Assembly (NCBI GenBank): GCA_024137785.1
Contig: JAHRHZ010000046.1
Coordinates: forward strand, 31,286,320-31,350,319
Reading direction: 5' to 3'
DNA: 64,000 bases
From: Ginglymostoma cirratum
Lineage: Eukaryota
The translations under genes were made by a program, and so were the position numbers. The notes below the pieces were generated by a model, which saw nothing but the letters and a program-made list of their open reading frames with translations, was not told where the DNA came from and did not search any database. This document shows, piece after piece, positions 1-64,000 of the stretch (positions are counted from its first letter, which is position 1; each line of letters opens with the position of its first letter).

Positions 1-129
1 GACCCTTCTTCAGAAAACATGACCCTTCATTTTTTCTGAAGAAGGGTCTAGGCCCAAAACGTCAGCTTTCCTGCTCATCTGATGCTGCTTGACCTGCTGT
101 GTTCATCCAGCTCTACACCTTGTCACCTC
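1..129. mobile_element. PLE-derived hammerhead fold-back element (family A), left arm cut by the window edge
   Basis: 1-16 gacccttcttcagaaa is the reverse complement of tttctgaagaagggtc (33-48). The right arm matches 21221-21319. GAAA is mutated to AAAA. Confidence 0.85.
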
Positions 130-3100
130 GAATAGGAAGTCAAGTTTGCTATTCTGTTTGGCTCCCTAGGAGCATTTTAAAAAGATATACACTGTATATT
201 TGAAACTCTACAATACAAGGCGTCTGGTTTCTCAAATAAATGCTTGAACCTCCTGCTCACGAAACACATGCCATGAAACATTAATGCCTAGCCAAATTCA
301 GTTATCATTTTCCTAGGCCCTGTGTAAGTCCTTATTAAATTAATTTATCTTTTATTAATTCATGAGGACCTTAGCTTCATTTTAAAATGCCTAATTTTCC
401 TTGTGGTTCTCTGAATTTGGCTTGTCCCACAAAAAAGAGATGCCAACTACTGTGGTGGCTTCATAAATCCATAATTACTTAGCCAAGGAACACTCTGCTT
501 GGCTCAAGACTCTAATAAACTGCAGGTATAAATAGCCATTGGGAAAATCACCAACCACAAGCTACTTACTCATTCATTTAGTAATTCGATCCTAAGATGA
601 AAACAACATAATTAATTTGCCAAAATATATTTTGCACAATAATAATTACATTTCTACAACATGCTCCAGTTTCTGGGTTGAACTTGGCATGAGGTTTATC
701 ATATTGGATTTTCCACAGGAAGGTATGAGTTGGTTTCATGAATTTATACTAACATGTGCAGCTTGTATCATAGGTAGTATACAATGGGAGTAAATGAAAA
801 ATAATCTAATCTCCTGCATTTTATGATGGTGCCCTATCCTGCTGCGTCCTTTCTCCAGGAAAATGAAAGAGTGCTACCTAGTTCAAAAGTAGGCTTGATT
901 TACCCATGTAGAAAAGCGTAACAGCTTATCAGCAAAGATGAGATTTATATTGAACCTGCAGACTGCTTGGCATCTTGTTTGTTATAATGCACTCTTTAAA
1001 GTCTTGGTCTGCCAATAATATGGCATATACAATAACATTAAAAAAGTGTAATGCAACATGTATATGAAACTAATTTGTAAATAACATTTAAACCTGGGAA
1101 ACAATGTGAAAAGGCCAGAACCATCTGAAGAGGATTGCTTCTGTGGGCAAGTCAGCAAACATTGGTGGGTTGATTTAACATTGTAGGTGATAAAATAGTG
1201 GCACAGTGAAAAATACAAATAGTCCAACAAATGGGAAGAGGAGGCATCTTAGCTCAAAACAACAGGATTCCAGTATAACCCTGTGATTGAAATAATGAAA
1301 CAAGAATTAAAACTGGAAAAGAATGTCCCTGGTTGTTTCTGGATTTTGTATTTTTTTTAGAGAATTAACGCAATGGGAGTGAAACGGAGGTGGACTGGGT
1401 GCATTGAACACAGGAACAATGAGGAATAGATTTGTTTCTTTTTAATGTACATTTCTAATGAACCAAATGAGAATTACATTTGCACACTGGAATTTCACCT
1501 CTGGATAAAAATTTGCAGACTGGATCAGAAATTGGCGTATCATGCATCTGTTTATTCAGACATAGAAGAGTTAAAAAGCAGTGCAATTTGAGAGTAGGAA
1601 TGTCTGTCCCTCACCTATGCAAATACTGGTACTTTTGCATATTTGTAAGCCTTATTTCTTTTCAGAGGTTGCCATCAGGCGGTCTTGAATATGTAACCAG
1701 AAGTACTACTATACATTAAGGAATGCCTTCAAAAAATTGATTAGGATTCTCCAGCAGCCATCATCTGAGGGCATACATTTACAATTTTATTTGTCAAGAA
1801 ACATATTCACACACAATCACAAGAAATAGGAGCAGGAATGGTTCCCCGACTTCAAAGGAGTCACAGTCAATCCTTCCTGTAAGCCACTACTTTTCAGAAT
1901 TTAGTTTAATTGGCAGTTTCTGTTAAGAAAACTGAAAATGGAGGTTAATGAGTTCTGAATCTTGCCAAAAGCCTAATTCCTAATGAATCTCTGACCTCCT
2001 CTTTCAGCTAACATTGCTTCAGCGATGCCCAGTTTGAGCCCCAGATTATTTGCTACCCATGGGTTTTAATGTATGCTGTTCCTTACATTTGTTGATGATG
2101 AAACGCTGTGGCTAGGGTGTCAGCCATGCAGAATTTTCACACTTTTACAACAGTTGTCATCAGCCAAAGGTCTCACAGAACAAGCAGGATTAAGAGATAA
2201 GAGAGATAAAAGTTGGCTGTAAATTTGATTTATAAGATTCCAAGGAACAGTGCAAACTCAACTGATTTGCTGCCCATATTAATTAATGAATCACATGGGA
2301 AATTAGCCAAATTTTTTAAGCATTTTGTACATAAATCCAGATTGAACTATTTGCAACACTCATTTGGCATTTTTTTCTCAAACTTAATCACATGATTCTG
2401 CTTTACAATGTCCAAGTGCAGCACAATTACATACAATAAAAATAAGAGATTTTGTTTGTCAGCACATGGGATCTCTTCTGGACATGAATATAATGTACAT
2501 TGTCCTGAAATTGAAGAAAACCATCTCATTGTACCTTAATAAATCTCACTGTGACACAGTTTTACAAAAAGCATAAGAGAATCATATTTACTCGTCTAAT
2601 GCTTTCACAATGAGCAAAACTTAATTTCTCATATCTAGTATTGAATATCTCATATATTTCTCAATGCTGACTTCTAGTAAAGAGAGGATCACAAGAAAAG
2701 AGCTTCTGTTATCTGGAAACTGAAAAGGCTGCCCTTGTGGTGAAAAGCACAGTATTCATTTATACATTGTTTTAGAAACAAAAATTTCTTTAAAGAGCAC
2801 ACATCTTCCGCTCAAATAGCTTTTGTACAATGTGTAATGAGCTATCCTACAATCAGCAGTGCTAAATGCACATAATACATCGCAGATGTACAATATGTAA
2901 ACGTGCAAATATCATTTTAAAGCACATGTAATGCAACTGGATAAAATATACAACTAATTTTTTATTTAGTCAAATATTTCAAGGCAGGCTAAATTTCAGG
3001 AGTCTAGGTTGCGTCAGATGACCTGAAAATCTAGCTTCATTTGACCTTCAATAAAATGAAGGAGCTTTGCACACTTAATTATTGAAAATGCTTTTCGGAA

Positions 3101-8861: not shown

Positions 8862-9066
8862 GAGAACTACTGGAAACCTGAAACAAAAGCAGAAATTTCT
8901 GGAGAAACTCAATACGTCTGGCAGCATCTGTAGAGAGAAAGCAGCGTTAACATCGGAGGTCCAGTGACCGTTCTTTAAAATCCTCTGAAACCTAAAACAT
9001 TAACTTGGTTTTCTCTTCACAGATGCTGCTAGATCTGCTCAGTTTCTCCAGCATTTTCTGCTTTTG
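8862..9066. mobile_element. Decayed hammerhead fold-back element (family B)
   Basis: caaaagcagaaatttctggagaaact...gcagcatctgt (from 8884) is inverted relative to acagatgctgct...agtttctccagcattttctgcttttg (to 9066); similar to 56588-56720. Confidence 0.8.
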
Positions 9067-10121
9067 CAACAACTACATATCTTTCATAAAACTTGAGCCG
9101 TCCACCTCAATTCAAGGCAAGAGGATGCTGAACTGTGGATCTCAATTTGACGTGTATTACTAACTTGGCTTCAATCTCCCCAAGAAATTAGTTTCTTTTC
9201 TGAAGCACGTCTTTCAAATTTCAACCTATGGAGTATAAAGCTTTTGGGGAGCGTTAAAAGCTACAACTGGTCTCATTAAGTGAAATGAAATTGTAAACAA
9301 TTGATTTTTGATTGAGGGTTACTTTTCCACACCTGTTTTACTTTTCTTTAGTTGACAAAATGCCATCTGGCTGAAATGATGGGGTTTTAAAACTGATTGT
9401 GTGTTTCTGAAAGGAACTGGACCTAAATGGACTATAATTACCCAAAATCACACATTGTCACATTATTTTTGAATGCTTTCTTAGGGAGGATGAAATCAGT
9501 AAGCATTCTTCAGTGTAGCATGCAAAGGAAACATAGACATTGTTTTAAACTAGTACTTCTTTCATAAGCATTTAAATATTTTATTCAATTTAATTGTATA
9601 TTCCAGGCACAATCTCACACAAAACATGACAAGTTTAGATATTATTTTGCTCAGATGTATCTCCTCAGCAATTCTACATGTGGTCTGTAAATATCTTACG
9701 CAATGAAAATAACAAAAATTAAATAAGCAATTCTCATTTTTCTCCCCCCTTTAAATCTAAACAAAACTGGAATACTAAGAACAGAAACTTCTGAGCCCTT
9801 GAATGACATAGGCCACGGCAAGAAATTTAGGAGTTTCAAATGTCCAGAGAAGCCCTTCTCAACGCCAAAAGGAAAAGGCTCATTTTTAAACTAAGTGTTG
9901 GACATCGAGACAAGATTATCAATAATGAGCTGCAAGAGGCCTATGAACACAGATTATCACTCATTGTCACACTCATTATCTCACCTCATTAATGTGCTTG
10001 TTCCTCTTCTGGTGGAGTGATAGTGTCCCTACCCACAAACTGATAGGCCTAGGTTCAAGTCTAATCTACACCAGAGATGGGTGATAACAGCAAGCTGGGG
10101 TCAAAAACCCAACTGAGTCCT

Positions 10122-10214
10122 GGTGAAGAGTCACTGAATGCAAAACATTAACTCTGATTTATCTTCACAGATGCTGCCAGAACTGCTGAGCTTTTCCAGC
10201 AACTTCTGTTTTTG
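10122..10214 (+). mobile_element. Single-arm decayed family B copy
   Basis: aaacattaactctg...cacagatgctgccagaactgctgagcttttccagcaacttctgtttttg is nearly identical to 56612-56683. Confidence 0.8.
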
Positions 10215-12752: not shown

Positions 12753-12980
12753 CAAAATACAGCAGATGCTGGAAATCTAAAAGAAGCACAGGAAGTGGTG
12801 AGGCAACTCATTTAGTCTGACAGCAACTGTGGAGAGAGAAGCAGAGTAAACGTTTCGTCTCTGATACAACTCTTCTTTAAGTACTGAAAACATCAGACTC
12901 AAAACATTGACTCTGTTTCTTTCTCCACAGATGCTCCCAGATCTGTTGAGTTTTTCTAGCATTTTCTACATTTGTTTTCA
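12753..12980. mobile_element. Decayed hammerhead fold-back element (family B-related)
   Basis: ctgtggagagagaagcagagtaaacgtttcg is inverted relative to aaaacattgactctgtttctttctccacag. Confidence 0.75.
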
Positions 12981-19433: not shown

Positions 19434-21026
19434 ACATTCCCCAGAATTCACTATTGATGATGGGTTCATGAATTACATGAAGCCTCTAGTTACAGGGTGT
19501 TTATTAATGAGTAATGAGTTTATGAGTTTATTAATTCGTGATTATTCGTTTGATTTTATCTGATATTCTCTTGTTTCTCCCTCAACAGGGATCAATCTAA
19601 CTTCTTTGTCCCGTTTGCCTATAGGACGATGGCCTGATGTCCATCAAGCTAGGGAACTCACTCGCTCGAATAAATTTAAAACAGTACAAATGAAATCAAC
19701 CTAATAATTACATAATTTTATTTTACACAGTACTTTTGGGGTAAAATTCAACCTTGGGGTTGGGGTAAGCTCTCTTAAGGGTAATTATAGAATAGGTAAT
19801 ATGCACAACTTTCTAGTCTTTGAAGATTTTAAGCGGCAAATTGAACTGGGTTTATGATAGACAGGTGATCAGCCATTACCTCTTCTTTACCCATACCATT
19901 GTCTGCATTTCTCACTCTCACTGAGATTTGAATTTTGCCCGTTCCACTTCAATGATTCCAATCCCAAAAGTATCAATTGAAAAGATCTGTCTTCTTATGC
20001 TAACAAAATAAATGGTTTATTGCTTATAAAAATTAGAACATTTATAGTTATTTTAAACGGATAAGAACAGATACTATGTGTATTATGATTTTTTTTTAAG
20101 GTTGCATTGATCAATTTAATTTGCGCTGGTTATTAGCACCAGTCAAACACACAGCCAATAAAGTTAGCAATAAGCGGATATAAAACTGAACCATGTGCCT
20201 CATTTGAATGTTACTGTTAAGCTGCCGGCACATGATGAGGATGTACAATAAAATTGCGACTTGGAAAAGTGTTGTTGACATTTATAACACCACCTCTGAC
20301 ACCATCTCAAGTTTTCAGATGAGCAAACATTTCAAAGGTGGACCAATTGAAAATTGTCAGGCTGCTGTCTACCCTAATATATGTTACCAGCTGTTGTGAG
20401 GAGCTGACATCACTTGCCACAAAGTGATTGCTGAGTCTGAATGGTTTCATTTCATCTCTAACTCACTAAATTCTAAGGAAGCTTTCAAAACTTAACTGCC
20501 TTCAAGTTACACAAGAAATTGGTGTGAGAATATTTAACACATTCCTATGTAATTACTTTCTCTTTTACTTGTATGAACAACAAACAATTGAAAATAAAAG
20601 TCTTGATGCTTCTCCTAGACAGATAAGGATTAACAAACAACGACATTAAGCAAGTGATTACATTTGTGCAAGTCTAAGTGGAAGGCCCATGTCAATTATT
20701 ATTTTGAACAGAAGGGAAAAGTATATTTTTAGTACCTCCTCCAGAGTGAAATGTAAAATGGTAAAAATTGATTATTATGTATAAATTAAATAAGATTTCT
20801 CAGATCATTCTTGTCCAAAGTTCTTAAAAAAATTAGAGATGACCTCCAAGACAGCCATTATCCACAGTTAGCAGTTATTAATATGAGTTAACAGTATATT
20901 TGTCTGAAGCATTCGACCTACAATAGGGTGTGAATGCTAGGCAGAGGTTGTACACTGTGAAGCCATAAATTCACATATTGCATTGTGCTTGATCATAAAT
21001 TGAAAATGGGATGCAGTTTTACAAGA

Positions 21027-21352
21027 GTTAACAAGGTGCAGAGCTGGATGAACACAGCAGGCCAAGCAGCNNNNNNNNNNNNNNNNNNNNNNNNNNNNNN
21101 NNNNNNNNNNNNNNNNNNNNNNNNNNNNNNNNNNNNNNNNNNNNNNNNNNNNNNNNNNNNNNNNNNNNNNGGAGCAGGAAAGCTGACGCTTCGGGCCTAG
21201 ACCCTTCTTCAGAAATTTTTTTTTTCTGAAGAAGGGTCTAGGCCCGAAGCGTCAGCCTTCCTGCTCCTCTGATGCTGCTTGGCCTGCTGTGTTCATCCAG
21301 CTCTGCACCTTGTTATCTCAGATTCTCCAGCATCTGCAGTTCCTGCTATCTC
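21027..21352. mobile_element. Young hammerhead fold-back element (family A) with 15-bp TSD; contains a 100-N gap
   Basis: Near-perfect inverted arms meet at cagaaattttttttttctg. TSD tgcagttttacaaga at 21012-21026 and 21353-21367. Confidence 0.92.
21071..21170. other. Assembly gap (100 N)
   Basis: N run. Confidence 1.
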
Positions 21353-24235
21353 TGCAGTTTTACAAGATGCTCTTTTTATTAAGACAGTCTCCATCAGAAA
21401 AAACTGACTCAATGTAACTGTCGATGAAATATGAAAATGTCATGGGTTCTGTGAAACAAAAAGATAGGACATTTAACATTTAGAATTAACTATCTGCGAT
21501 CCATTATGAATAATACCTGATATGTGTTAAGAGAATTCCGGGTAGTTCTCAAAATTGAAGTGTTGTGGCAATAAATATAATGCACCCATTTTTTTCATTT
21601 GTACAATCAATCAAGCTCCATGACTGGACTGTTGTCCTAAAATTCATTTCCAAAATCTTCAATATCAAGAATAGACAGATCATGAACGAATCTTGGAAGT
21701 GTTAATATTTTCTCAGCTTTACCATCTCATCCACTTTTACTATATTTATGCATCCCTCCAGGCTTCATGTGTTATCAGGTGTTCTTCCTACATCTGCTAA
21801 AATCTTCTGTATAGAACATCTCATTTTCGTGACTTCAGAAAAAAATAAGCCAAGAATGAGCTTAGAATCTGAACAAAATCAAAAGCTGGTATTGTGTGGC
21901 TCAGACATATTCTGTCAAAGGTTCTGTGATTGACTCTCTTCATTTAGATCAAATGACAAAATAACTGGGCATTCAATTCCAAGTCCCTTTAATTTTCAAA
22001 TTTTCCCTTGTATCTCGCAGATGAAACAAAATAGCTTACGACTTTGATTAAAAGAATTAGAAGTATGAGTACAATAGGATAATTCTGTATTGAAATTGAG
22101 CAGACATCAATGAATTTTCTGTGATCAGTGAACGACACAAAGTGTCTGACTTGTTCAATGGAGCACTGTGCCTATGTGTGTGTATTTACAGGTACTGATT
22201 TCTTTTTAAGCATGTCACATCATGATACTGAAATTATTTCTGTCTGTGAAGAGAAATTGGTGCAATGTTTATTATGGTACAATTAAGTCAATTTTCTTCA
22301 ATATCTCCAAAGATTGACTTCTGTTCATATGTGACGCAACAGCAGAGACAGAATAAAGTAAAAATGCTGCCAAGTGTCTCAGCAGTATCTGGTAGGATCT
22401 TTTCCCCGAGAAAAAGTGACCTGTTATGTAAGTATAAATGGTTGGGAAGTGAAAGGTGGCAGTTTATTAACTGAGCCTGATGACCAATATCATGTAAACT
22501 CGATTGCAAGTGTCAGGAAGTCTAAAGCTGCAGAAGCAGTCATGAAGGATCAAATTGGAAGTACTTACCAATGGGTAAATCGCAAGCCTGCAGAGTTTTA
22601 ACTTCATATCTAACAGCTATTCTTGTTGTACAAAAACTCCAAAAAGGTATGACTAATATCACAGCCTCAAATTAGATTGACAAGGCACATTATGAGATAA
22701 CTGACAATTGTTACGGCTGTTGCATATGATAAACATGTAACATGCATCCATTCAAGAAGTTAATACAAAACAGAAATATTATTGACGTCAAGAGGTCTGA
22801 TAATAAGGTACTGGAGCATAAGTTAATGTTCACATTTCCTTACTTAGCTAAAACAACATTATAAATTAAGAAGATTTGTACTGTGTGTCTCCGCATAAGA
22901 AAGAAAGAAAGACTTGTTAACTGAATGATGTTGGTTTGAATGGCTGTTAATGGTGGCCCAATAATGAAATTATAGAATGACATGTAAGGTACTGATTACA
23001 ATGGAGATAGTGTCAGGACAAGGACCAAGTGCAGTGGGAAGCAAACCAGAAATTAGATGGATTCAACAGCCCAACTGTGTGTGTGCCTTGACTTTCAATG
23101 CAGAGTGAAAATCCAGCCTGAGTCAGGTTTTTTTTGTGACATGTGAAAAGCCACTGTAAGTGCAGGATTAGTAGGAAGATAAAATATGGACAAAACAGCT
23201 TCTGTTACCTTAAAACTTTTCATATGACTGATAGTTGCTACTGTGTTTTAGCAGTTATATAATTATACATTTAATTATTCAATGTCACAATCAATCAGTC
23301 TGTTTTATGTCATTTAGATACTGAAAAATTCTCACTCTGTAAAACATAGCCTGTGGATTTTTACTCCTCTATTGAGACTTTTTGCAGTGTTTCTGTACAG
23401 AAAATCTGAAGAAACTGTTTTGGAATGGGAAGATGTGTGACATTAGCATGTATTTGCAAGTGTTGTCTGATTTGTTAATCTGTTTTTCTCAAATACGTCT
23501 GAGTTTTGGCTAATGTGCAAAATTAGCTTTTGAACATCAAGCCCTGAGTACCCATTTATAGAATTTTATGTGAAAATTTTAATCACATGCAATCCTCAAG
23601 TATGGGTTAAAGTGCTGCAATGAAAAACTCTAATGATGTGTAACTGCTTTAGTTTACTTTTGTATTCCTATTCTAATCTAACTAGCCAATGAATCATTTC
23701 ATTCATTCATTTAATTATTTGCTAGTCTAATGTTTGCTTGTTAAATTAATGAAAATTTCATCTCAATAGAATAAACAAGTTGGACTAGTGTAATTACAAT
23801 GTGAGGCCCACCTCTACTAGTTCCATTGTGAATGTCAGACTAGCTAATGTAAGTGTTTGTATTTACAATCTGAATTCACTGTATGTTCAATCTATGTAGG
23901 TAGTGTGTACTATCTATGGGATGGATCACATTACTCACCAAGACTTCTTCAACAGTATCTCCCAAACACATGACCTCCACTGCAAAGGTGAAGAAGGAAA
24001 CAGACACATAGGAATACGATTACCTCCAAATTCCTTTCCAAGCTACACAGTCTCTTGGCTTGGATGGTCTTCACTGTTGCTGGATTAAAAATTCTAGAAA
24101 ACTTGATCTAACCATCCTGTGGGGAACCTTCACTGTAAAGATTGAAGTTAATATTGATGCTTCCTCCACGTGGCACGTGCTGTTTGGGTTTAGAACTTGT
24201 GAGCTATATTGACTGATAAAATCTTCAGTGATTAT

Positions 24236-25668: not shown

Positions 25669-25770
25669 AGTTTTGAAGAAGGGTGACTGGACCCGAAACA
25701 TTAACTCTATTTTATTTTCACAGATGTAGCCAGGCCTGCTGAGTTTCTCAGCAATTTTTTTTTTTTGTTT
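25669..25770 (+). mobile_element. Single-arm family B copy beginning at the hammerhead
   Basis: agtt-ttgaaga-agggtgactggaccc-gaaacattaactc...cacagatgtagccaggcctgctgagtttctc. Confidence 0.8.
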
Positions 25771-27152: not shown

Positions 27153-27512
27153 TTGAATCTTTGTTTAATGAAGCTTTATGGTGAAACTGAATGCGCTTTG
27201 CATGAAAGCAGAATTATTTATGACACAGACCTCTTTATTTCGTTGATGGCCTTTAACATTATGTAATAAAAGCTTCTATTGTGAATAGCCTCAGATATTA
27301 TTTTGATGATTGCTACTTTTAATCCTTTCCACAAAGATACCAGGTTGTTCACATTAAACTCAGATTTAAGTTTAAAAAAAGTAAAAAGTTGTTAGAATGC
27401 AAAACTGTATAGCCAGTATCATTTTGACAGGAACCCAAAACAAAAGTCATATTTCCCATTAACTCTTTAAAAGTTCACTACAGCAGTAGTAGTTAACACA
27501 TACAGCCCAGAT

Positions 27513-28142
27513 ATAACAAGCATGGGGCTGGATGAACACAGCAGGGTCAAGCAGCATCATAGGAGCAGGAAAACTTGACGTTTCGGGCCTAAACCCTTNN
27601 NNNNNNNNNNNNNNNNNNNNNNNNNNNNNNNNNNNNNNNNNNNNNNNNNNNNNNNNNNNNNNNNNNNNNNNNNNNNNNNNNNNNNNNNNNNNNNNNNNNN
27701 NNNNNNNNNNNNNNNNNNNNNNNNNNNNNNNNNNNNNNNNNNNNNNNNNNNNNNNNNNNNNNNNNNNNNNNNNNNNNNNNNNNNNNNNNNNNNNNNNNNN
27801 NNNNNNNNNNNNNNNNNNNNNNNNNNNNNNNNNNNNNNNNNNNNNNNNNNNNNNNNNNNNNNNNNNNNNNNNNNNNNNNNNNNNNNNNNNNNNNNNNNNN
27901 NNNNNNNNNNNNNNNNNNNNNNNNNNNNNNNNNNNNNNNNNNNNNNNNNNNNNNNNNNNNNNNNNNNNNNNNNNNNNNNNNNNNNNNNNNNNNNNNNNCG
28001 GGCCTAAACCCTTCATCAGAAAAGGGTTTAGGCCCGAAACGTCAAGTTTTCCTGCTCCTATGATGCTGCTTGACCTGCTGTGTTCATCCAGCCCCATGCT
28101 TGTTATCTCAGATTCCCCAGCATCTGCAGTACCTTTTATCTC
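27513..28142. mobile_element. Young hammerhead fold-back element (family A, same variant as the PLE at 36791); contains a 400-N gap
   Basis: Inverted arms 27513-27598 and 28023-28106. TSD-like cagcccagatataa at 27503-27516 and 28160-28173. Confidence 0.9.
27599..27998. other. Assembly gap (400 N)
   Basis: N run. Confidence 1.
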
Positions 28143-28829
28143 TGATACAATTTTTACCCCAGCCCAGATATAATACAGTTTTTTACTTTCAGTAGATGAG
28201 ATTCTGGCAGTCCAGAAACACTATTGGATAGGAGAACTGAAATCCGCTGTAAACGTAATTTCGCCTTCCACCAGCGCAGCAAACCTGTCTGTTTTCCAAC
28301 GAGGTTCAAACTGAGTTGTTACACAGTTACCATTACAGCTGCTATCAGGAAATCCTGCTGACCGCACAAGATATTCATTGTCTGCCCTTATTTCTTCTCT
28401 GTATGAATTGAATTATTAACTTGCATCTCCAGCTCCAAAAAATTAGTTTGATTCTATACACACTTACATTGTGATATTACTCATAAAGAACTAGGATCTA
28501 ATTGTTATGAGGACATACATCCAAGGTCCTGCAGACAATGGTGCAGTCTAGTCAGAGACCAAGGAACAATGCCACAGTCTCCCAGCCACTTGGAGAACCG
28601 TAAGAAATACAATTAACGAACATCAGCCTTTTAAGCCTAAAAGTGTAATTATTTCTGAGAACTAGAAAACATGACATGGCACAATAAGTGTCTGTGAGTA
28701 AATAAAACTGTTTTCCATACTTAATTTTATATGAGATTGAGAAAACGCAACACAAATTGTTGCTGGAGAGGGAAAACTCTGAGTGAATCATGTCAAAACA
28801 AAATGATTGCTTCAGGCCGTGATGAATTC

Positions 28830-31090: not shown

Positions 31091-31562
31091 AAAAGAGACA
31101 CATAAATTCAAAGTCTTTCACATCATCTTATCAGGACAGACAGGCAAGAAGCCGAAGTGTGAAATCAAACAATTTATACAACATGACGAGAGTGTACTTT
31201 GGTTGGACAACAGTCAGCACAGAAATGCAACTGGAGCAGTTAATTGTGAATATTGGTTTGCTGAAAAAGCTCAGCACCCTCTCCTCATGCTATATAAATT
31301 GGTGTTCCCTTTCTAAGGTTTCCTTCTTAAATATCAGATAAAAACCGAAAGTACTGTGGATGCTGTAAATCAGGAACAAAAACTAAGCTGCTGGAAAAGC
31401 TCAGCAGGTTTGGCAGCATCTGTGAAGGAAAAAACAGAGTTAACATTTCGGGTCCGGTGACCCTTCCTCAGAACTGCTGAGCTTTTTCAGTAACTTTGTT
31501 TTTGTTCTTAAATATCAGTCCTGATGACCAAAGATAAAAATGCTTTGACTAGTGTCGCATTT
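31091..31562. mobile_element. Older fold-back element (family D) with outward-facing hammerhead-like motifs, interrupted by the 31338-31507 insertion
   Basis: tcaggacaga...aatttatacaacatgacgagagtgtact is inverted relative to agcaccctctcctcatgctatataaatt...cagtcctgatga. Both sides read gtcctgat(a/g)a....(g/a)aaa..ctttga. Confidence 0.6.
31338..31507 (-). mobile_element. Family B hammerhead element (full minus arm plus short inverted arm) with 14-bp TSD
   Basis: Minus strand AGUU-CUGAGGA-A-GGGUC-ACCG-GACCC-GAAA-UGUU-AACU. TSD ttcttaaatatcag at 31324-31337 and 31505-31518. Confidence 0.92.
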
Positions 31563-33192: not shown

Positions 33193-33327
33193 TGTGGAGG
33201 TGCCGATGTTGGACTGGGGCGGACAAGGTCAGAAATCACACAACACCAGGTTATAGTCCAATGGGTGTATTTGAAATTTCAAACATATTTGTTGGACTAT
33301 AACCTGGTGTCGTGTGATTTCTGACCT
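33193..33327. mobile_element. Fold-back element (family C), no hammerhead retained, 14-bp TSD
   Basis: aggtcagaaatcacacaacaccaggttatagtccaa (33226-33261) is inverted at 33292-33327. TSD ttaccatgtcatga at 33179-33192 and 33328-33341. Confidence 0.85.
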
Positions 33328-33384
33328 TTACCATGTCATGACATCGAATTACAAAGAACCATCTGATGAACACCCAATATGGAA

Positions 33385-36790: not shown

Positions 36791-38773
36791 GATAACAAGC
36801 ATGGGGCTGGATGAACACAACAGGCCAAGCAGCATCACAGGAGCAGGAAAACTTGACGTTTCGGGCCTAGACCCTTCATCAGAAATGGGGGAGGGGAAGA
36901 GGGTTCTGAAATAAATAGGGAGAGAGGGGGAGGCGGATAGAGGATGGATAGAGGAGAGGATAGGTGGAGAGGAGGCAGACAAGTCGAAGAGGCGGGGATG
37001 GAGCCAGTAAAGGTGAGTGTAGGTAGGGGGGTAGGGAGGAGATAGGTCAGTCCAGGGAGGACGGACAGGTCAAGGGGGCAGGATGATGTTAGGAGATGGG
37101 GGTGTGGCTTGAGGTAAGAGGAAAAACAGGTTAGGAGGTGGAGATGAGCTAGGCTGGTTTTGGGATGCGGTTGGGGGAGGGGAGATTTTGAAACTTGTGA
37201 GATCCACATTGATGCCATTGGGCTGCAGGGTTCCCAGGCTGAATATGATTTGCTGTTCCTGCAGCCTTCGGGTGGCATCACTGTGGCATTGCAGGAGGCC
37301 CAGGATGGACATGTCATCTGAGGAATGGGAGGGGGAGTTGAAATGGTTCGCGACTGGGAGGTGCAGTTGTTTGTTGCGAACTGAGCACAGGTGGTCTGCA
37401 AAGCGGTCCCCAAGCCTCCGCTTAGTTTCCCCGATGTAGAGGAAGCCACAACGGGTACAGCGGATGCAGTATACCACATCTGCCTGATGTGGAAAGTCTT
37501 CTTGGGGCCTGGGATTGGGGTGAGGGAGGTGGTGTGGGGGCAGGTGTAGCACTTCCTGCGGTTGCAGGGAAAAGTGCCGGGTGTGGTGGGGCTGGAGGGG
37601 AGTGTGGAGCGGACAAGGGAGTCGCGGAGGGAGTGGTCCCTCCGGAAAGCAGATAAGGGTGGGGAGGGAAAAATGTCTTTGATGGTGGGGTCTGATTGCA
37701 GATGGCGGAAGTGTTGGAGGATGATGCGTTGGATCCGGAGGTTGGTGGGGTGGTATGTGAGGACGAGGGGGATTCTTTTTTGGTTATTATTGCGGGGACG
37801 GGGCGTAAGGGACGTGTTCCGGGAAATGCGGGAGACACGGTCGAGGGCGTTCTCGACCACTGTCGGGGGCAAGTTGCGGTCCTTGAAGAATGAGGACATT
37901 TGAGATGTATGGGAGTGGAATGTCTCATCCTGGGAGCAGATGCGGCGGAGGTGAAGGAATTGGGAATAGGGGATAGCATTTTTGCAGGAAGGTGGGTGGG
38001 AGGAGGTGTATTCCAGGTAGCTGTGGGAGTCAGTGGGCTTGAAATGGACATCGGTTTCTCGGTGGTTACCTGAGATGGAGACAGAGGTCCAGGAAGGAGA
38101 GAGAAGTGTTGGAGATGGTCCAGGTGAACTTCAGGTTGGGGTGGAAGGTGTTGGTGAAGTGGATGAACTGTTCGAGCTCCTTGTGGGAGCACGAGGCGGC
38201 GCCGATGCAGTCATCAATGTAACGGAGGAAGAGGTGGGGTTTAGGGCCAGTGTAGGTACGGAAGAGGGATTGTTCCACGTAACCTACAAAGAGGCAGGCA
38301 TAGCTTGGGCCCATGTGGGTACCCATGGCCACCCCTTTTGTCTGTAGGAAGTGGGAGAAATTGAAAGAGAAGTTGTTGAGGGTGAGGACGAGTTCGGCTA
38401 AGTGGATGAGGGTGTCAGTGGAGGGGGATTGGTCAGTTCTGCAGGACAGGAAGAAGCGGAGGGCCTTCAGGCCATCAGCATGGGGAATACAGGTGTATAG
38501 GGACTGGATGTCCATCGTAAAAATGAGGTGTTGGGGACCGGGGAATTGGAAGTTCTGGAGGAGGTGGAGGGCGTGGGTGGTGTCACGGACGTAGGTAGGG
38601 AGTTCCTGGACCAAGGGGGTGAAAATGGAGTCTAGGTAGGTGGAGATAAGTTCGGTGGGGCAGGAGCAGGCGGAGACAATGGGTCGACCAGGGCATTCAG
38701 GTTTGTGGATTTTGGGGAGGAGATAGAAGCGGGCGGTGCGGGGTTGGGGAACGATGAGGTTGGAGGCAGTGGG
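36791..38773 (-). mobile_element. Penelope-like retroelement (probably Neptune-type), 5'-truncated and frameshifted; RT + GIY-YIG endonuclease + 3' hammerhead module
   Basis: RT motifs FYLLPKIHKP..GRPIVS, TMDIQSLYT, QTKGVAMGTHMGPSYA, FLRYIDD. Linker PLVLTYHP and PCNRRKCYTC. GIY-YIG domain VVYCIRCTRCGFLYIGETKRRLGDRFADH...HFN...LGTLQPNGIN. Flanked by tggaatagcagt (36779-36790) / tgggatagcagt (38774-38785), a 12-bp TSD with 1 mismatch. Confidence 0.95.
36852..36885 (-). ncRNA. Minimal type I hammerhead ribozyme motif in the PLE 3' region
   Basis: UUU-CUGAUGA-A-GGGUCUAGGCCC-GAAA-C-GUC^AAG: intact catalytic boxes, stem II GGGU/GCCC, palindromic ACGU in place of stem III, short stem I UUU/AAG. Confidence 0.8.
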
Positions 38774-41109
38774 TGGGATAGCAGTATTGCCTTATCCTAT
38801 CAAGTTTCTGATCATATCAGATTGCACTTAATTTATCTTCATCACCAGATTGGGAGTAGGTGGATTTGCAGGTTTCTTCAATCAGAAAAAAAGGCACTCC
38901 ACCCACATTGCATATATTTAATCGCTCGCTGCATTCTCTTCACCTGTAATCAAAGTTACCAAACAACTTGTAGAAAATCTACTTCATATCTGCAGAAATA
39001 TTTGACACAAGATTGAAACTTTTTATTTGGCTGTACTTTTCCCATAATAAAAAGGACAAAAGAGCAACTTACAGCACATGTATGTACACTTGTATTAAAT
39101 ACTTCTTGGTTACCTCATTATTCACTAAAATTAAGTGTTCTAACATTTCAGAAACCCTTCAGCATCTGTGTCGAAAACAAACTGGGGAGTTGCCGTGTGT
39201 GACAAAGTGATGAAAAAAAAATTCAACAAGGTTTTTACATTAATTGTCACATGCCCACGATATAAGCATATGGCAATTACATAGTTACAATTTAGGGTTG
39301 AGAGAAACAGATTATTTTGGGTAGTTTATATCTTCATACATTTGGTTGCAGCAACATCACAGTTCCATCTGGTTCAGACAGGCAACTTTTCATCTTTTCT
39401 TTTGCCCGTCTGAAAGCTGGGTGGCCCCAGGAAATATCAATATATCTATAATTTTTAACAAAGAAAACACACTTTACATCACCTCCAATATATATCAGTA
39501 AGAGTGATTGCTGGGTTTCAAACATTGAAAATTTTGAACAATTGCCAGCTTTAATAATTCAAAGGTCCCAAGAGTAGGAATTGATCAAACCGTGCTTTAA
39601 AAAAAACTCACTAACAATTAACCAAAATTAATTTGACTGTTGATTTGAACTGAAGAATGTCACCAAAAATTCTTCAAAAAATAAACTCAATTTTGCATGC
39701 TCATTTTTTGCAGTCTTTAAGTATCTGTTCCATTTTAAAAGGGAGGAATAATGATGTAATCCTCCATACATACCAACCTTTGTATCCAGCTGTCAGCACT
39801 GCAGGATAAGTGAATGGATTCCATAGCACTCTGTGGTGCTGTTTCATCAGTCAGCTCAGCTAAGGTGTAACACATTGCTGTTTATCTTTTGCGCCTGATT
39901 CAAGAGTTGCAGAAGTCAGAAACCCAAAGAGGCAACAAAGGCCGATGATTATCATTGCACTTTGAGCACAGCGACAACTCAAAGTCTCAGGCAGATCTAA
40001 TGGAAAAGTTGTTTTAAAAAAAAGTCAAAATTAAACTGAAAATGTTGCCTCTGTCATTGAGAATAGACGTAATACTGTTACCACAATGTGTTGCATAGAA
40101 ACTACATCAAACCCTCCGAAGTGACTGACTGAAATCTATAAATTAATTGGAACCTTTCAAGGAAATGTATTCTACCACAGCTATTTCCTCCCATAACCAC
40201 AGTCACACAATTACAGGGCTTTCTAAGACACAACTGTTCTAATTTTTTTCTCATTTACTTGACTGAAGCTACTAGGTCCATACTGAGAGTAACATTAATG
40301 AACCCTTGTCACTCTCCTGAAATCAATTGTCCACATGCATGAACTGAAGCAGTGAAGAGTCAGCTTTGTGAAGGCTTCACAAGCAAAGTACAATCTTGCC
40401 TTCACCTAATATCCATTGATTCATCCTCCTAGCTACTGATCAACAATGTACCCAATTTCCAAAAAAAGGCTCTTCTGTGAAAAGAAAATCATTTATCCAT
40501 GCAACTCACTGTGATTTCAATTAAATGAACGTAATTTTCACCCCCAAAAGTAGGTTGCTTTGGGTTGCATGCAAAATAAAGACAAAAAAAATCTGAAAAT
40601 CCCAAAATTGATCAAACCAGAGAATAAAAGGCTGGATCTGGACAAGAAGAAACAGCAGTGTTTCCTCCAGGACCAACAAGTTTTCTTGTGCACACCCCCA
40701 CCCCAACCCCGCTCATCACCATCATTTGCCAAATTCCCACTACCTCAAATGCAGACTCTCCAAATTCCCCTTCCCACCAACAGAATGTAACTCACCCAGT
40801 CTACTCCCTCTCCCTATAATCTTCCCTTTCCCAGATCACAGAATCTTCCCAATGTCATCCTCCTTTCTGCCTCTGCCTCAAACCTTAGCTGTGGCACAGT
40901 GCTGAGGCCAGCAGCCTCTCAGTATATGCTTCTCATCCAGTGCTTCTACCCTGCTCCCTTTCCATTTCTCCATAAATAAGATTAATAATCTGTGAATTTT
41001 ACAGGACAGCAAATGCTGAGACTGAATTTAAAACCTGTATCATCCAGAGGAATATACTAGTAATCTACTAATTGCACCATGCAGTTATGTCTTGAATACA
41101 GCATCTAAC

Positions 41110-43616
41110 ACAAGTACTGTATATGAGGGACTTGGTTAGGTGGATAGGAAGGACTTATATTAATTAGTGGAGATGGCTATAACCAGAGGAGGTATTGATT
41201 TCAAGTAATTGGTGGAAGGTAAGTTGAAAACATTAAACTGTTGACCCATCTTTGATGAGTTAATGGCATGGATTGACCATGGAGGTATGATATTGTTGCC
41301 ATCATAGAAATATGGTTAAGGGAACGGCTGGACTGGCAACCGAACATTCGGGGTTTAGGAACTATAGGCAAGACAGAGGAGTATGTAAAAAAGAGTGTTG
41401 ATGTAGCATTACTAATTACGGAGTCAATTACTGCAATAAGGAGAGATGATATCTTGGAAGGGTCCTCAAATGAGGCTTTGTGGGTAAAACGTAGGAACTC
41501 GAAGGAGCAGCCACTCTACTGGGAGTGTACTATAGGCCCCCAAAGAGTCAAAGGGAAATAGAGGACCAAAGATGTAGACAGTTAAAAAAGATATGTATGT
41601 TAGAGTAATAATCAGGTAACTATACTAGGAGATTTCAACTTTCCCAACCTAAGTTGGGATAGTCTTAGGGTTAAGGGTTTAGAGGGGGAAACATTTCTTG
41701 AGGATATCCAGGGGATTTTTTTTTGTATGAGTATGTAGAAGACCCTACAAGGGACAGCACACTGCTGGATCTGGTTCTGTGGAAAGAAGAAAAACATGTG
41801 TACGATGTGGCAGTGGGGGAACATTTTAGCGATAGCGACTACAATTTGGTACGGTTTAAATTTATTCTGGGCAAGGAAAAAGATGGCCTGCAAAAGATGG
41901 CTTTAGATTGGAGGAAGGCAAACATAAAGAAGGTTCCAGCCTTTTAATTCCCCTCTGGCTACCGGGGAAGAGCCAGAGGACTGGAGAATGGCTAATGTGG
42001 TTCCACTTTTCAGCAAGGGTGGTAGAGATGAATTGGGAAACTACAGACCGCTAAGTCTCACATCCGTGACAGGGAAACTTTTGGACAAAATTCTGAAGGA
42101 GCAAATTAATACCCACTTGGAAAGACATGGGCTAATTAGGGATGATCGACATGGTTTTGTCAGAGGGAGGTCATGCCTAACAAATTTGTTAGAATTTTTT
42201 GAAAATGTGATCAAGTGTGTGGATGAGAAAAGTTCAGTTGATGTAGCTTATGAGGATTTTAGCAAGACTTTTGACATGATCCTACTTGGAAAACTGATTA
42301 AGAAGGTTAAAGCACCTGGAACTGAGGAGAACTTGGCAAGTTGGATCAGAAACTGGCTTCGTAATAGGACACAATAATGGTAGAAGGTTGTTTGAGTGAC
42401 TGGAGGCCAGTGTCCAGCAGTGTACCACAAGGATCAGTGCTGGGATTCCTATTATTTGTCATGTACATGACAGATACAGTTGTAAATGCGGGAGGAATGT
42501 CAAGCAAATTTTCAGACAAGATCAAGATTGGTCGAGTGGATAACAGCAAAGAAGATGGTTGTAGGTTGCAGGAAGATATAGCTGGATTTATCAGATGGGC
42601 AGACCAGTGGCAGATGGTATTTAACCCTGATGAGTTGGAAGAAGAAACAAGATGAAGGAATATTTAAAGAATGGCAGGACACTAGGTAGCTCAGAAGAAC
42701 AGAAGGATGTTGGGGTAATTATTCACAAATCCCTGAAGTCGGCAGAGCATGTGAATAGGATAGTTAAGGCCGCATAAGGAACACTTGTTTTCATCAGTCG
42801 TGGCATAGTGTATAACAGCAAGGAGGTAACGTTGGAGTTGTACAGAATGTTAGTCAGGCCACAGCTGGAGTACTGTATGCAGTGCTGGTCACCTAATTAC
42901 AGGAAGGATGTGATAGCACTGGAGGGGGTACAGAGGAGGTTCACCAGGATGTTGCCTGGGATGGAGAAATTGAGCTATAAGGAGAGATTAGAGGGGCTTG
43001 GATTGTTTTCTTTAGAGCAGAGAAGACAGAAAAGGGACATGATTGACATGTATAAGATTATGAGGGGTATGGACAGGGTGAATGGAGAGCAGCTGTTCCC
43101 CTTAGTTGAGAGGTCAATCACGAGGGGGCATAGCTTTAAGGTGGTTGGCAGAAGGATTACAAAGGACATGAGGAAAGACCTTTTCACCCAGAGGGCTGTG
43201 GATGTTGGGTATGAAATAACTCCACAGGGGCCAGGATCCAATCACCAAGTCACCCGTTATTTACACATGGACAGGGATCCAGCTCCCTCAGGGCCAGCTC
43301 TCAGAGTGAACAGAACCTCTGACACTCCTGTTTATAGCTGTCAGCGAGGGGTCCCTGATTGGACCAGATCAACAGCCCCAGTCAAGGAACTCATAATTTA
43401 TGAGGTCCACCTGGCTGTCCTTGTTACAATCACTACAGGGAGTTTATTTGGAAATCTTCAAATCATTTCAAAGGAACAGAGATCTACACTTCCAATGCTG
43501 TAACTTGAAAGGTGCTATTCACAAACATCAGATTGGCAGCTAGCTTATTCAGACAGCGCAAACATCATGGGCTGAATGGCCCCTTTCTGTGCTGTAACTT
43601 TTCCATCATTTTATTT
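41110..43616 (+). mobile_element. CR1 LINE with APE endonuclease and RT remnants, internally deleted and frameshifted
   Basis: EN: YDIVAIIEIW, GVYYRPP, ILGDFNFP, PTRDSTLLDLVL, HFSDSDY. RT: WRMANVVPLFSKG..GNYRPLSLTSVTGK, HGFVRGRSCLTNL, DFSKTFD, VPQGSVLG, LVRPQLEYC..WSP, LEGVQRRFTRMLPGM. 3' UTR gggctgaatggcccctttctgtgctgta. Confidence 0.95.
43203..43437 (-). mobile_element. Solo LTR (~235 bp) inserted in the CR1
   Basis: TGT...ACA termini. Minus strand has CCAATCAGG, CTATAAA and an AATAAC polyA-like signal. Flanks tgga/ggga (4 bp, 1 mismatch). It interrupts the CR1 frame after FTQRAV. Confidence 0.75.
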
Positions 43617-56548: not shown

Positions 56549-56720
56549 GTTAACGTTTCGGGTCCGGTGACCCTTCCTCACAACAGGTTCTGAGAAAGGG
56601 TCACCAGACCCGAAACGTTAACTCTGTTTTTCCTTCCAGGTGCTGCCAGACCTGCTGAGCTTTTCCAGCAACTTCTGTTTTTGTTCCTGATTCACTGCAT
56701 CCGCTGTTCTTTCGGTTTGT
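56549..56720. mobile_element. Family B hammerhead fold-back element with 14-bp TSD
   Basis: gttaacgtttcgggtccggtgacccttcctca is inverted relative to tgagaaagggtcaccagacccgaaacgttaac. TSD ataaagatttattt (56535-56548) / ataaagatttgttt (56721-56734). Confidence 0.92.
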
Positions 56721-57210
56721 ATAAAGATTTGTTTTTTGTTTTATTATTCCAGCCAATATCTTGCGTCCAACAATATATATCTGCTTTTGATTACAGGATG
56801 GCATTAACGAGTTCAAGTAAAATAAAGTATAAAACATCTATTTTAAGCTTTTAAATGCACTTACAGATGGGAGAACTGATGATGTCTGTTGGAGTGAAAC
56901 CTTCAGACTATCAAATCAATAAACCAAGAGATCGAATTACATGCAGTGTGACAGCCAGAATGAACAGCCCGGCATTTTGTACCCTGCAACAGGAGACAGA
57001 AAGCTGACCGTTAAATGTTCTAATCAGCTTGAAGTCCTGCAATCTGCTTTTGTCTGGAATACTCATTATAAACATCAGCAAGGAGGTCAAATCATGTGCT
57101 GAGAATGGTTCTTGCACTTTTGCAATGTTATCCACTCTGTCAAATCCAGTGATCACACGGGAGGGGTGCTTTTTGAACGTCTGGCAGTGCCATTTTTACA
57201 CTCGCAGTTG

Positions 57211-61278: not shown

Positions 61279-61500
61279 TAAAGAGGATAGCAAGAACTGC
61301 AGATGCTGGAGTCAGAGTCGATACAGTGTGGAGCCGGAGGAACACAGCAGGTCAGACAGCATCAGAGGAGCAAGAGAGTTGACGTTTTGGGCCTAAACCC
61401 TTCATCAGGTCCCGATGAAAGGTCTAAGCCTTAAACATCAACTCTTCTAGTCCTCTAATGCTGCCTGACCTGCTGTGTTCCTCCAGCTCCACATTGTATC
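61279..61500. mobile_element. Hammerhead fold-back element (family A-related) with 12-bp TSD
   Basis: Inverted arms centred on cccttcatcaggtcccgatgaaagg. TSD gactgattttga at 61267-61278 and 61501-61512. Confidence 0.9.
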
Positions 61501-64000
61501 GACTGATTTTGACGTTAGCTGTTGATATAGCACGTTGACAAACAATAAATCTCTGCAATCTACAGTTTATTTTGCAAAATGCAAGGGAAAATCTGCTCTT
61601 TAAGTGGATAATTGATATTGAAAGCCTTGTTAAAGCAGACCTGGACTCTCTTTGTCATTTGGTGGGACATATCTGAAATTCTATCACTTTATCAGTACAA
61701 ACCCTTTCATTTCCCTGGAGGAGAACTAGATTTTCCATTGGGTAGAAATGTAAGAGACAGCTAGTATGCATGCTATGACAATCTGTTTAGGACCATTATG
61801 AAAAAGATACATAATTATAATATTCCTCTATTGCAAGAATATTTTTGACTAATTGATACTTCTGTGAAATACAGGAAGTACGTATTCCTTTGTTTTCATT
61901 GGTAACTGTGCAAAACTTATACTAGAAAAAGTATACTCTGACACACTGAAATACTATGAACATTTAACTTCAGCATTAGCCAATATATTCTCATTCCTTT
62001 AACTTTATACATCATATAACTTTGTCAATAGACATGATTAAAACAATTCAGGATAATGAAATATGAAAAATCAACTCAGAATAACATACAGATGTCACAT
62101 ACCAAAACAAAATCTGGTGAGAAATTCTTGCTGCTTAAAATAAAATGTATAAAATCCTCGGTTATACAGTGAAGTGCATTAATATAACAAAATTCAATCA
62201 AAAGTGAACCATTAATAATTAAGTTGAAAGAATAAAAGGTCACCTCATATTCTCAATAGTTACACCATTTCCCTCCCAATACTTCAGTTGTGGGATTCAA
62301 ATCAGTCAAAACTAATATTGCTGGCTCAAGAGATTCTCTGTTTTACATAAGATAAAAGATCCAACATGATTTTAACCAAATTTAGATTGAAGGTAGATCT
62401 CAGGAAATTCATTACAGTAAATGATTTCGCTTTAGCCACAAGAACACTTAATTAATTGATTTTGTTGCATCCTTCCTGTAAGGTTCATCTTCTGAAATGC
62501 ACAGTAAAAATAACACAAAGGTCACTGTAACAGGAGCTTTGGTAATGATGGGCGTCAGCTGGGTAAATCAATTCTCGTCTGGGGTCATGTTTAAAAATGA
62601 TTAAAATACGTGGTAAATAACTTCATCTTCGTTTCCTTACCACAGAAAAGCATGGTACCCTGTAGATACTGTAGCAAAATCCAGCAATGAAAAGGTATTC
62701 GTAACAAAAAAAAACACATCATGTTTATTATCAGATAAAATAAAGAGATTCCAACAGACAAAAGATTGTTACAAAGAGCAAGATTTCTCCTGATGTATTG
62801 GTAGATCATTTGATTGAAAACAGTATTCTCTCTCTCTGTCTCTTAAGAGTTGTCAATTTACCAATTCAATCTGGTTACAGATCCCCAGTATGCTCCACTG
62901 GGAATCTATATCACTGACTATAAAAGGTCTCAACTAATCCTAATTTTCTTTTCAGTTTTACATAAAATCGTCCTTTACCAAGCCATCCAAACATTGTTAA
63001 AAGAAGACACGAATGATCTTGTGGGTCCACTGATATGCTTTCATGTCAGCGAGGGTTATAATCCACCACCTTGTTCATTACAGGCTAGTGTTTTATTAGT
63101 AATGAATACAACACACAGCATGGACAGTAAAAGACATTGGGCACTGGACTGTCAGCCCTGTTAGTCTAGGTTAATTCTTAAAATGTCAACACTGGGTTTG
63201 AACTCTAATACTTTAAATGAATATTCTCTAAAATAAAATCTAATTGATCTTCTCTGGCAGTCCTCATGAGCATTCCTGGTTTCAAGATATCTTGTTAAGT
63301 TTAGTTGTGATGATGGAGCTGTGTTAAATTGGCCTGTCCCTTTAAAGCCACCTCCTTTGTACAAAGTGAATCAAACTGACCAGCTTTGATGTCAGTTTGG
63401 GGTTGAAAGAAGTTGTTGAGAAAAGTGCCTGTAGATTTGCAGCTGTTTGCAAATGCCAATTTTTACCCTTGAGGAAGTTAGGTTAATAATGTCATACAAA
63501 CCATTGAGAAATGACTGACATTCTTTATCATTCTCAAAGACGTTTTTCTCAAATTCATTTTGCATCTGTAAGTAGTTGCGACACTTTGAAATGTGATGCC
63601 TTACATGAAGAATAACATGGAAAGTTTTTAGTTTCAAGATCAACCAAATCTTGCATAGCCCATTGATTCATTCATACACAACAGGTCAATCTTACAGTTA
63701 GTGTTTAATATTATGCTAGCAGTTATGATCTCCATCTATGGTTGTTAAAAATAATTTAATATTAACCTTTTGAACTGTACCCATATCCCTTGAAAAATCA
63801 ACTATGTTCATTCAGCATCCATTATGGATGAACACCACCACATGCGGCGCTCCCAATCCAAAAGTAACAAATTAGCAGTTCTCCTGATTCCAATGGAAAT
63901 TTGATGTCAGTTTGTTATTATCCATTGTGCTCAATGCAAAGACAAAACCTGCCCTAGACCCCTGATTTTACTGAGATAGGATTTTCAAGTTGGGGAAGGA

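Follow-up and report, generated by a model that had tools for sequence, protein, structure and literature searches.

Penelope-like elements (PLEs) of the Neptune clade encode a reverse transcriptase (RT) with a C-terminal GIY-YIG endonuclease and a CX2-5CxxC linker, and they carry a hammerhead ribozyme in a pseudo-LTR (pLTR), an inverted 5'-truncated copy and a tail at one end (PMC8557442). The available text of that paper contains no mapping of copy 5' ends to the start of hammerhead stem I and leaves the origin of tandem and inverted copies open. In vitro, Poseidon PAc of Anolis nicks both strands and uses two internal RT starts at the tail, mainly on uncleaved RNA; insertion 5' ends and pair formation are not addressed in the available part of that study (PMC11167929). 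As far as the accessible portions of PMC8557442 and PMC11167929 go, regeneration of the pLTR, inverted copies with a one-sided tail, and the role of the hammerhead are treated there as open questions. Judging from the parts of the literature available, earlier publications already describe pLTR inversion, tails on one side, RT starting internally and copying of uncleaved RNA, as well as a putative TATA/Inr in a rotifer pLTR.

Here we describe an element of Ginglymostoma cirratum that shares the Neptune features listed above. Its tens of thousands of copies form a base-resolved record of where copying started and stopped.

The element and its copies in the window

The window is a stretch of 64,000 nucleotides (contig JAHRHZ010000046.1, positions 31,286,320 to 31,350,319 of the forward strand). 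It contains a long PLE with the following features.

36791..38790, minus strand: 5'-truncated, frameshifted Penelope-like element with RT, Cys linker, GIY-YIG, 3' UTR (U3-like), ribozyme and short tail
37540..37566, minus strand: Neptune-type C-x4-C-x2-C linker between RT and endonuclease (motif as defined in the available text of PMC8557442)
36911..36917, minus strand: TATA-like box TATTTAT, -31 to -25 from the putative start
36880..36888, minus strand: initiator-like CC-A-TTTC, with the A at 36886 as inferred +1 and first base of stem I
36851..36886, minus strand: minimal type I hammerhead with stem I AUUU/AAGU, CUGAUGA, stem II, GAAA and palindromic ACGU; predicted cut 36855/36854

A domain search returned RVT_1 (E=3e-7) and GIY-YIG (E=1e-5) in successive frames of this element. 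It is an EN+ PLE, with an RT and C-terminal GIY-YIG, a pLTR, tandem and inverted copies, and an optional tail. Its linker fits the CX2-5CxxC pattern of the Neptune clade, to which we provisionally assign it. The ribozyme has the CUGANGA, GAAA and UH core, the palindromic stem III and the 4-bp stem I of a minimal type I hammerhead, in agreement with the motif described in the available text of PMC4209133, and self-cleavage is predicted from this layout. Stem I covaries across families (AUUU/AAGU, AGUU/AACU, AGUC/GACU, UCAC/GUGA), with one mismatch in some older copies. An Rfam scan of the window gave no hammerhead match, just hairpin matches to miRNA models, below thresholds. As the first-pass annotation had stated, the long PLE reads past the hammerhead edge into its own 3' UTR.

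The window also holds short 3'-end copies of this element's family and of two related families. Separately, an open frame at 42778-43503 may correspond to the C-terminal part of a CR1/L2-type LINE protein, which it resembles. Positions are given below on a scale on which C3 of CUGANGA is 0; cleavage in family A is predicted between +27 and +28. The named copies are as follows (a strand is assigned to the solo arm).

1..133: family-A pair truncated by the window edge; plus arm from -3, behind a T run and a short recopied ribozyme piece
21025..21354: family-A head-to-head pair; minus arm C3 at 21212, plus arm C3 at 21226; both end at -3/-4
25669..25765, plus strand: family-B solo arm, not a palindrome; starts at A(-4)
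27510..28161: young family-A pair with an internal N run; minus arm at -3, plus arm at +6 via AA/TT microhomology
31338..31507: family-B long-tail arm with a remnant partner arm; minus arm at about -5, partner at +59
56549..56722: family-B pair; both arms at -3
61279..61504: older family-A-like pair, an exception; arms end at 0 and +2; 12-bp target duplication

The first-pass annotation had placed an inner arm end 2-5 nt upstream of CUGANGA in seven copies. This was borne out in six (at 1, 21027, 25669, 27513, 31338 and 56549) but not in the copy at 61279. The end at -5 in the 31338 arm was set by eye, the aligner having extended it to -9 through mismatches. The centre of the pair at 21025..21354 reads AAA-T10, an expanded T run, between a short left and a long right tail; the pair at 27510..28161 has a short and a long tail and a 14-bp target duplication. 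The further claim that arms keep the whole ribozyme stood in part: many arms end upstream of the core, but many partner arms start inside it (0 to +20), with a small peak at the cleavage site.

Other copies were also seen in the window. A family-C head-to-head pair lies at 33225-33328 and is exceptional in that both arms begin past the predicted cleavage site, on its downstream side. Older copies that resemble family B but have diverged, in the form of pairs and a solo, lie at 8870-9066, 10112-10214 and 12769-12977, with inner ends at about -4 to +23.

Arm ends at the hammerhead boundary

Arm ends were scored in an unselected sample of 1.394 Mb drawn regardless of the element (808 kb non-N, 42% N). 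For family A, 122 arms passed the filters, and dropping 23 with an adjacent N run or edge left 99 scorable arms; for family B, 61 arms were scored. In family A, 34 of the 99 ended at -6 to -1, with none at -9 to -7, two at -19 to -10 and none at -29 to -20. Only two ended within -45 to -7, and two at +28 to +33. In family B, the interval -6 to -1 held 26 of 61 ends. Within -45 to +60 the excess at -6 to -1 has a binomial p of 1e-23 for family A and 3e-18 for family B. The breakpoints form a sharp peak at the 5' boundary of the hammerhead in two families, as the first-pass annotation had anticipated, and are not scattered through the 3' UTR. Two further groups of ends were set aside: eight family-A arms at -47 to -58 were rejected as truncations, as they look like older subfamilies with diverged 3' UTRs, and a cluster of five family-B arms at +28 was discarded because these are old copies in which a decayed CpG breaks the alignment.

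Copies were also counted by exact-pattern matches across the 4.36-Gb genome. There are 30,099 exact ribozyme cores, of which 16,999 keep six upstream bases and 15,154 keep thirteen; at the upstream rate of loss, about 27,300 would be expected to keep six. This deficit implies that roughly 10,000 young copies end at the hammerhead edge. Per-base retention in these counts was 0.909 over -1 to -6 and 0.984 over -7 to -13. First mismatches numbered 6,363 at -4, 1,315 with G and 987 with A or T at -5, and 1,638 at -6, the last two counts being based on suffixes one to two bases shorter. The modal arm end is -3 rather than -4; our guess is a stall before a modified first nucleotide.

The edge extends to copies that are not paired. 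We parsed 34 of 41 loci containing the ORF start, and ten of them reach C3; seven of these stop at -3 to -5 and three run into the 3' UTR as a pLTR. Since solo arms and ORF-bearing copies have the same edge, it is not a property of palindromes, a point that the first-pass annotation had missed.

One possibility is that the peak descends from a single palindromic master copy, or that the palindromes are mis-assembled. N runs are indeed frequent in young pairs, and several centres are duplicated around an N run, which makes palindrome counts unreliable; with some centres counted twice, the total of 2,053 palindromes is only indicative. However, palindrome centres and target duplications vary from copy to copy, and the edge is common to solos, ORF-bearing copies and two families. 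Moreover, opposite-strand joints at -3/-4 are present in raw RNA reads, so the junctions are not assembly products. We therefore regard a founder or assembly origin as extremely unlikely. The N runs themselves, of 400 or 100, often lie inside young palindromes with an identical centre on both sides, and resemble palindrome-caused assembly gaps.

Several longer copies deserve separate mention. A first candidate 5' continuation of the element (8 matches) proved to be target DNA and was rejected; the true continuation was found in loci L046, L047 and L157. At L047 (1226-1598), a tandem within one target duplication consists of one arm that begins at -3 and includes the ORF start, joined to another that begins at -4. 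This arrangement, with a similar one at L157, suggests that copying switched templates, passing from the RNA 5' end to the ORF of a full-length RNA. At L046 (850-1595), an internally deleted element has U3-R at both ends and is a candidate non-autonomous derivative; an RNA-read joint there leads back 325 nt. Finally, a family-A arm from +8 (G000 C19, L259-L263) is preceded by family-B 3' UTR-like sequence and may reflect a cross-family template switch.

A putative promoter and a probable template end

The edge corresponds to an initiator-like A at -4 that follows pyrimidines and opens the 4-bp stem I. In a TATA/Inr polymerase II core promoter, a TATA-like box lies about 30 nt upstream of a pyrimidine-A initiator. 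Relative to A(-4), a TATA-like box is found at -31 in families A (TATTTAT) and C (TATAAAT) and at -29 in family B (TATAAA), and the three families share this spacing although their 3' UTRs are otherwise unlike. Of 12 examples picked by hand, nine combine the box with A(-4), and in one of these the spacer is longer by 5 nt; the other three, of two other types (C2 and E), have no box. Families A, B and C thus have the layout of a TATA/Inr core promoter, and we call it a putative promoter on this motif evidence. A further hammerhead family with stem I UGCA and a longer stem II (L204-L213, L234-L238, L294-L298) has no TATA box at -31.

The arm-end pile-up likely marks a polymerase II start at A(-4), with RT starting at tail sites and running off the 5' end of uncleaved RNA. 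The first-pass annotation had left a choice between a defined RNA 5' end and a programmed RT stop just upstream of the ribozyme; the TATA/Inr spacing, the edge in ORF-bearing copies and extra bases confined to the end favour the former. If the ribozyme fold made RT stop, the stop should lie on the 3' side of the fold, where RT arrives first. RNA-seq X21 (about 24% of the run) and X22 (31 reads) gave no start pile-up at the edge, in reads that are unstranded and fragmented and, in the one deep raw run, come mostly from passively transcribed copies.

A second possibility is that the 5' end at -4 arises by processing, a longer RNA being trimmed 5' to 3' until the folded or protein-bound ribozyme blocks further trimming. 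Stem I, 4 bp long, has its 5' end exactly at the edge in all families, as such trimming would produce, and end-specific extra bases would be accounted for equally well. Processing nevertheless leaves unexplained why three families whose 3' UTRs are unrelated all have TATA boxes at the canonical distance, and the monomer is predicted to fold otherwise, with its first five bases unpaired. For processing by splicing, there is no acceptor AG at -6/-5, and the sequence upstream of the copies is target DNA with no shared exon; among the joints listed in RNA-seq X21 and X22 there are no splice joints. Overall, processing is an improbable source of this end. A polypyrimidine tract with TTTCAG overlaps the end of the TATA-like box in the window (36909-36914, minus strand) and resembles a 3' splice site at -23; no arms end at this putative site, and none of the listed joints is a splice joint there.

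It could also be speculated that RT pauses and dissociates at the edge on a longer RNA, for instance before the upstream C run. Retroviral RTs pause at homopolymer runs, and family A has a run of five C's at -5 to -9. However, family B shows the same peak (26/61) with no C run there, and equally C-rich 3' UTR further upstream has almost no ends. A further argument against pausing comes from slippage in the T's of stem I. Four or more T's occur in about 5,000 edge-ending copies, and 83 of the first 100 listed of the 6,363 copies with a non-A at -4 have T (such pattern listings give the first 100 places, not a random draw). Among 15,158 read-through copies, four have four T's versus 15,154 with three. 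We consider a pause very unlikely.

Edge-ending copies also show small recopied stretches, CTGA-TTT and ATG repeats among them. This raggedness, limited to copies that end at the edge, points to polymerase behaviour at a template end. At -5, G is the commonest non-templated base (1,315 versus 987 for A and T together), which is what copying of a cap predicts. A cap-derived G is possible; we rejected it as proof of capping on account of its ambiguity. TG-ATTT, a sequence that can equally result from realignment, accounts for 13 of 29 G contexts, four more take the G from the partner arm, and an untemplated G directly before ATTT was seen in only 3 of 34 clean solo junctions. We found no usable paper on cap copying.

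Some templates may have been cleaved. With matched double-mismatch patterns, 598 starts fall at +28, the cleavage site, compared with 122 at +27, 295 at +29, 216 at +21, 304 at +35 and 282 at +44; a stricter filter at +20 gave 134. Point and indel mutants are included in the +28 and control lists. The AA at +28 favours microhomology, but AAA at +21 has no comparable peak. On balance we lean towards a real minor class of cleaved RNA, of a few hundred copies versus about ten thousand run-offs. The earlier claim of an uncleaved template thus applies to the large majority of copies and probably not to all, given the local start peak at the cleavage site.

Proposed paired cDNAs and comparison with known systems

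The tables of pairs, junctions and alleles pool the unselected sample with pattern-selected loci. Outer arm ends cluster at about +94 and about +130. One short and one long tail were found in 64 of 69 scorable pairs (p about 5e-15; 37 of 38 clean pairs and 27 of 31 across an N run). This pattern suggests that each insertion involved two cDNAs. Unpaired arms have a short tail in 38 cases and a long one in 28. Minor alleles are shared between the arms of a pair 113 times and unshared 40 times. Mismatch is 8% within pairs compared with 42% after shuffling. A single source locus or gene conversion could also account for the shared alleles. The commonest length of target duplications is 14 bp (15 of the 40 found, among 122 arms), and many apparent solos retain a few bases of a second cDNA. 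In 28 asymmetric pairs, it is the short-tail arm that extends further 5' in 17 cases. In those pairs the long arm cannot be its fold-back copy, and we rejected fold-back copying of a single cDNA as a general route.

The same asymmetries bear on the proposal published for head-to-head palindromes of rotifers (available text of PMC3846280), in which the template would be an antisense RNA. Here its 3' end would lie at -3/-4 and prime on itself or on target T's, the T runs being its oligo(A) tail. T's common to junction and target are seen at many solo arms, and one junction has a run of about 20 T. This proposal fits the 17 of 28 asymmetric pairs poorly, however, and the promoter motifs face in the sense direction. 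Short arms also share two fixed tail ends with long copies truncated at random 5' positions, which fits RT starting at the tail, as reported in the available part of PMC11167929. An antisense template seems to us highly improbable.

We return to the probable transcription start at A(-4). The pLTR would split as U3-R, with the TATA box in the 3' UTR and R extending from A(-4) to the tail sites at about +94 and about +130. The protein would nick both target strands about 14 bp apart, and one cDNA would likely be primed per tail site, usually on the same RNA. A cDNA primed in the 5' R would be 100-135 nt long at run-off, frequently lacking the last base, and would then gain A's or realign on the template; one primed in the 3' R would continue into the 3' UTR. 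Two cDNA 3' ends joined by 1-3 nt of microhomology would give a head-to-head pair, and a 3' end joined to the target a solo arm. Observed here are the distribution of arm ends, the promoter-like motifs with their spacing, the extra bases specific to the end, the pairing of a short with a long tail, and the target duplications; from these we infer the start site, the cap, the two cDNAs and their origin on the same RNA. It predicts an exact start site, an effect of promoter mutation, and paired cDNAs of 100 nt and 135 nt.

More tentatively, the pLTRs may be true U3-R units whose transcripts start at the first base of the hammerhead, the ribozyme acting as a self-decapping switch, and a dimeric protein may make two strong-stop-like cDNAs per RNA with telomerase-like end realignment; the few hundred copies from self-cleaved RNA would then testify to minimal-hammerhead cleavage in vivo. 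Should cleavage strip a capped 32-nt leader from ahead of the ORF, the role of the ribozyme would lie in the control of translation or stability and not in excising a template. About 15,000 young copies that keep the upstream region are candidate promoters for host sequence.

In the freely accessible article texts we found no report of PLE insertion 5' ends at the stem I initiator, of end-specific slippage or of a cleavage-site peak; Fig. S2 of PMC11167929 may bear on the matter. As far as that paper's available text shows, nicking of both strands, two internal RT starts that define the tail and an uncleaved main substrate match our reading of the present element, and the two RT starts and the tail agree with its outer ends at about +94 and about +130. 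The Poseidon PAc ORF (PMC11167929), in contrast, starts inside the ribozyme, while here the ATG lies about 165-175 nt downstream. Penelope of Adineta vaga resembles the present element in its head-to-head pLTRs, palindromic junctions, one-sided tail and putative TATA box and Inr in the pLTR, and its target duplications are 8-10 bp; in the available text these structures are explained by self-priming on an antisense template and the motifs are not tied to insertion ends (PMC3846280). Drosophila virilis Penelope likewise has a promoter in the pLTR and a ribozyme near the RNA 5' end. According to the available parts of PMC2377424 and PMC4209133, that promoter is internal and TATA-less, and an intron of 75 nt, located 46 nt past the start, extends to helix I; in the present element the TATA box is upstream, with no sign of an intron. 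The TATA/edge layout is therefore not universal.

The copies do not have the structure of a non-LTR retrozyme: most arms stand alone or head-to-head and begin 5' of the core, and they are not cleavage-bounded head-to-tail tandems, although a few short head-to-tail tandems exist. Retroviral minus-strand strong-stop DNA is a short cDNA that extends from an internal primer site as far as the 5' end of the RNA, and in LINE-1 twin priming two target-primed cDNAs are joined by microhomology. The products proposed here differ from both, in that the short product would itself be inserted by target priming and both cDNAs would span the same region, with no tRNA primer or integrase.
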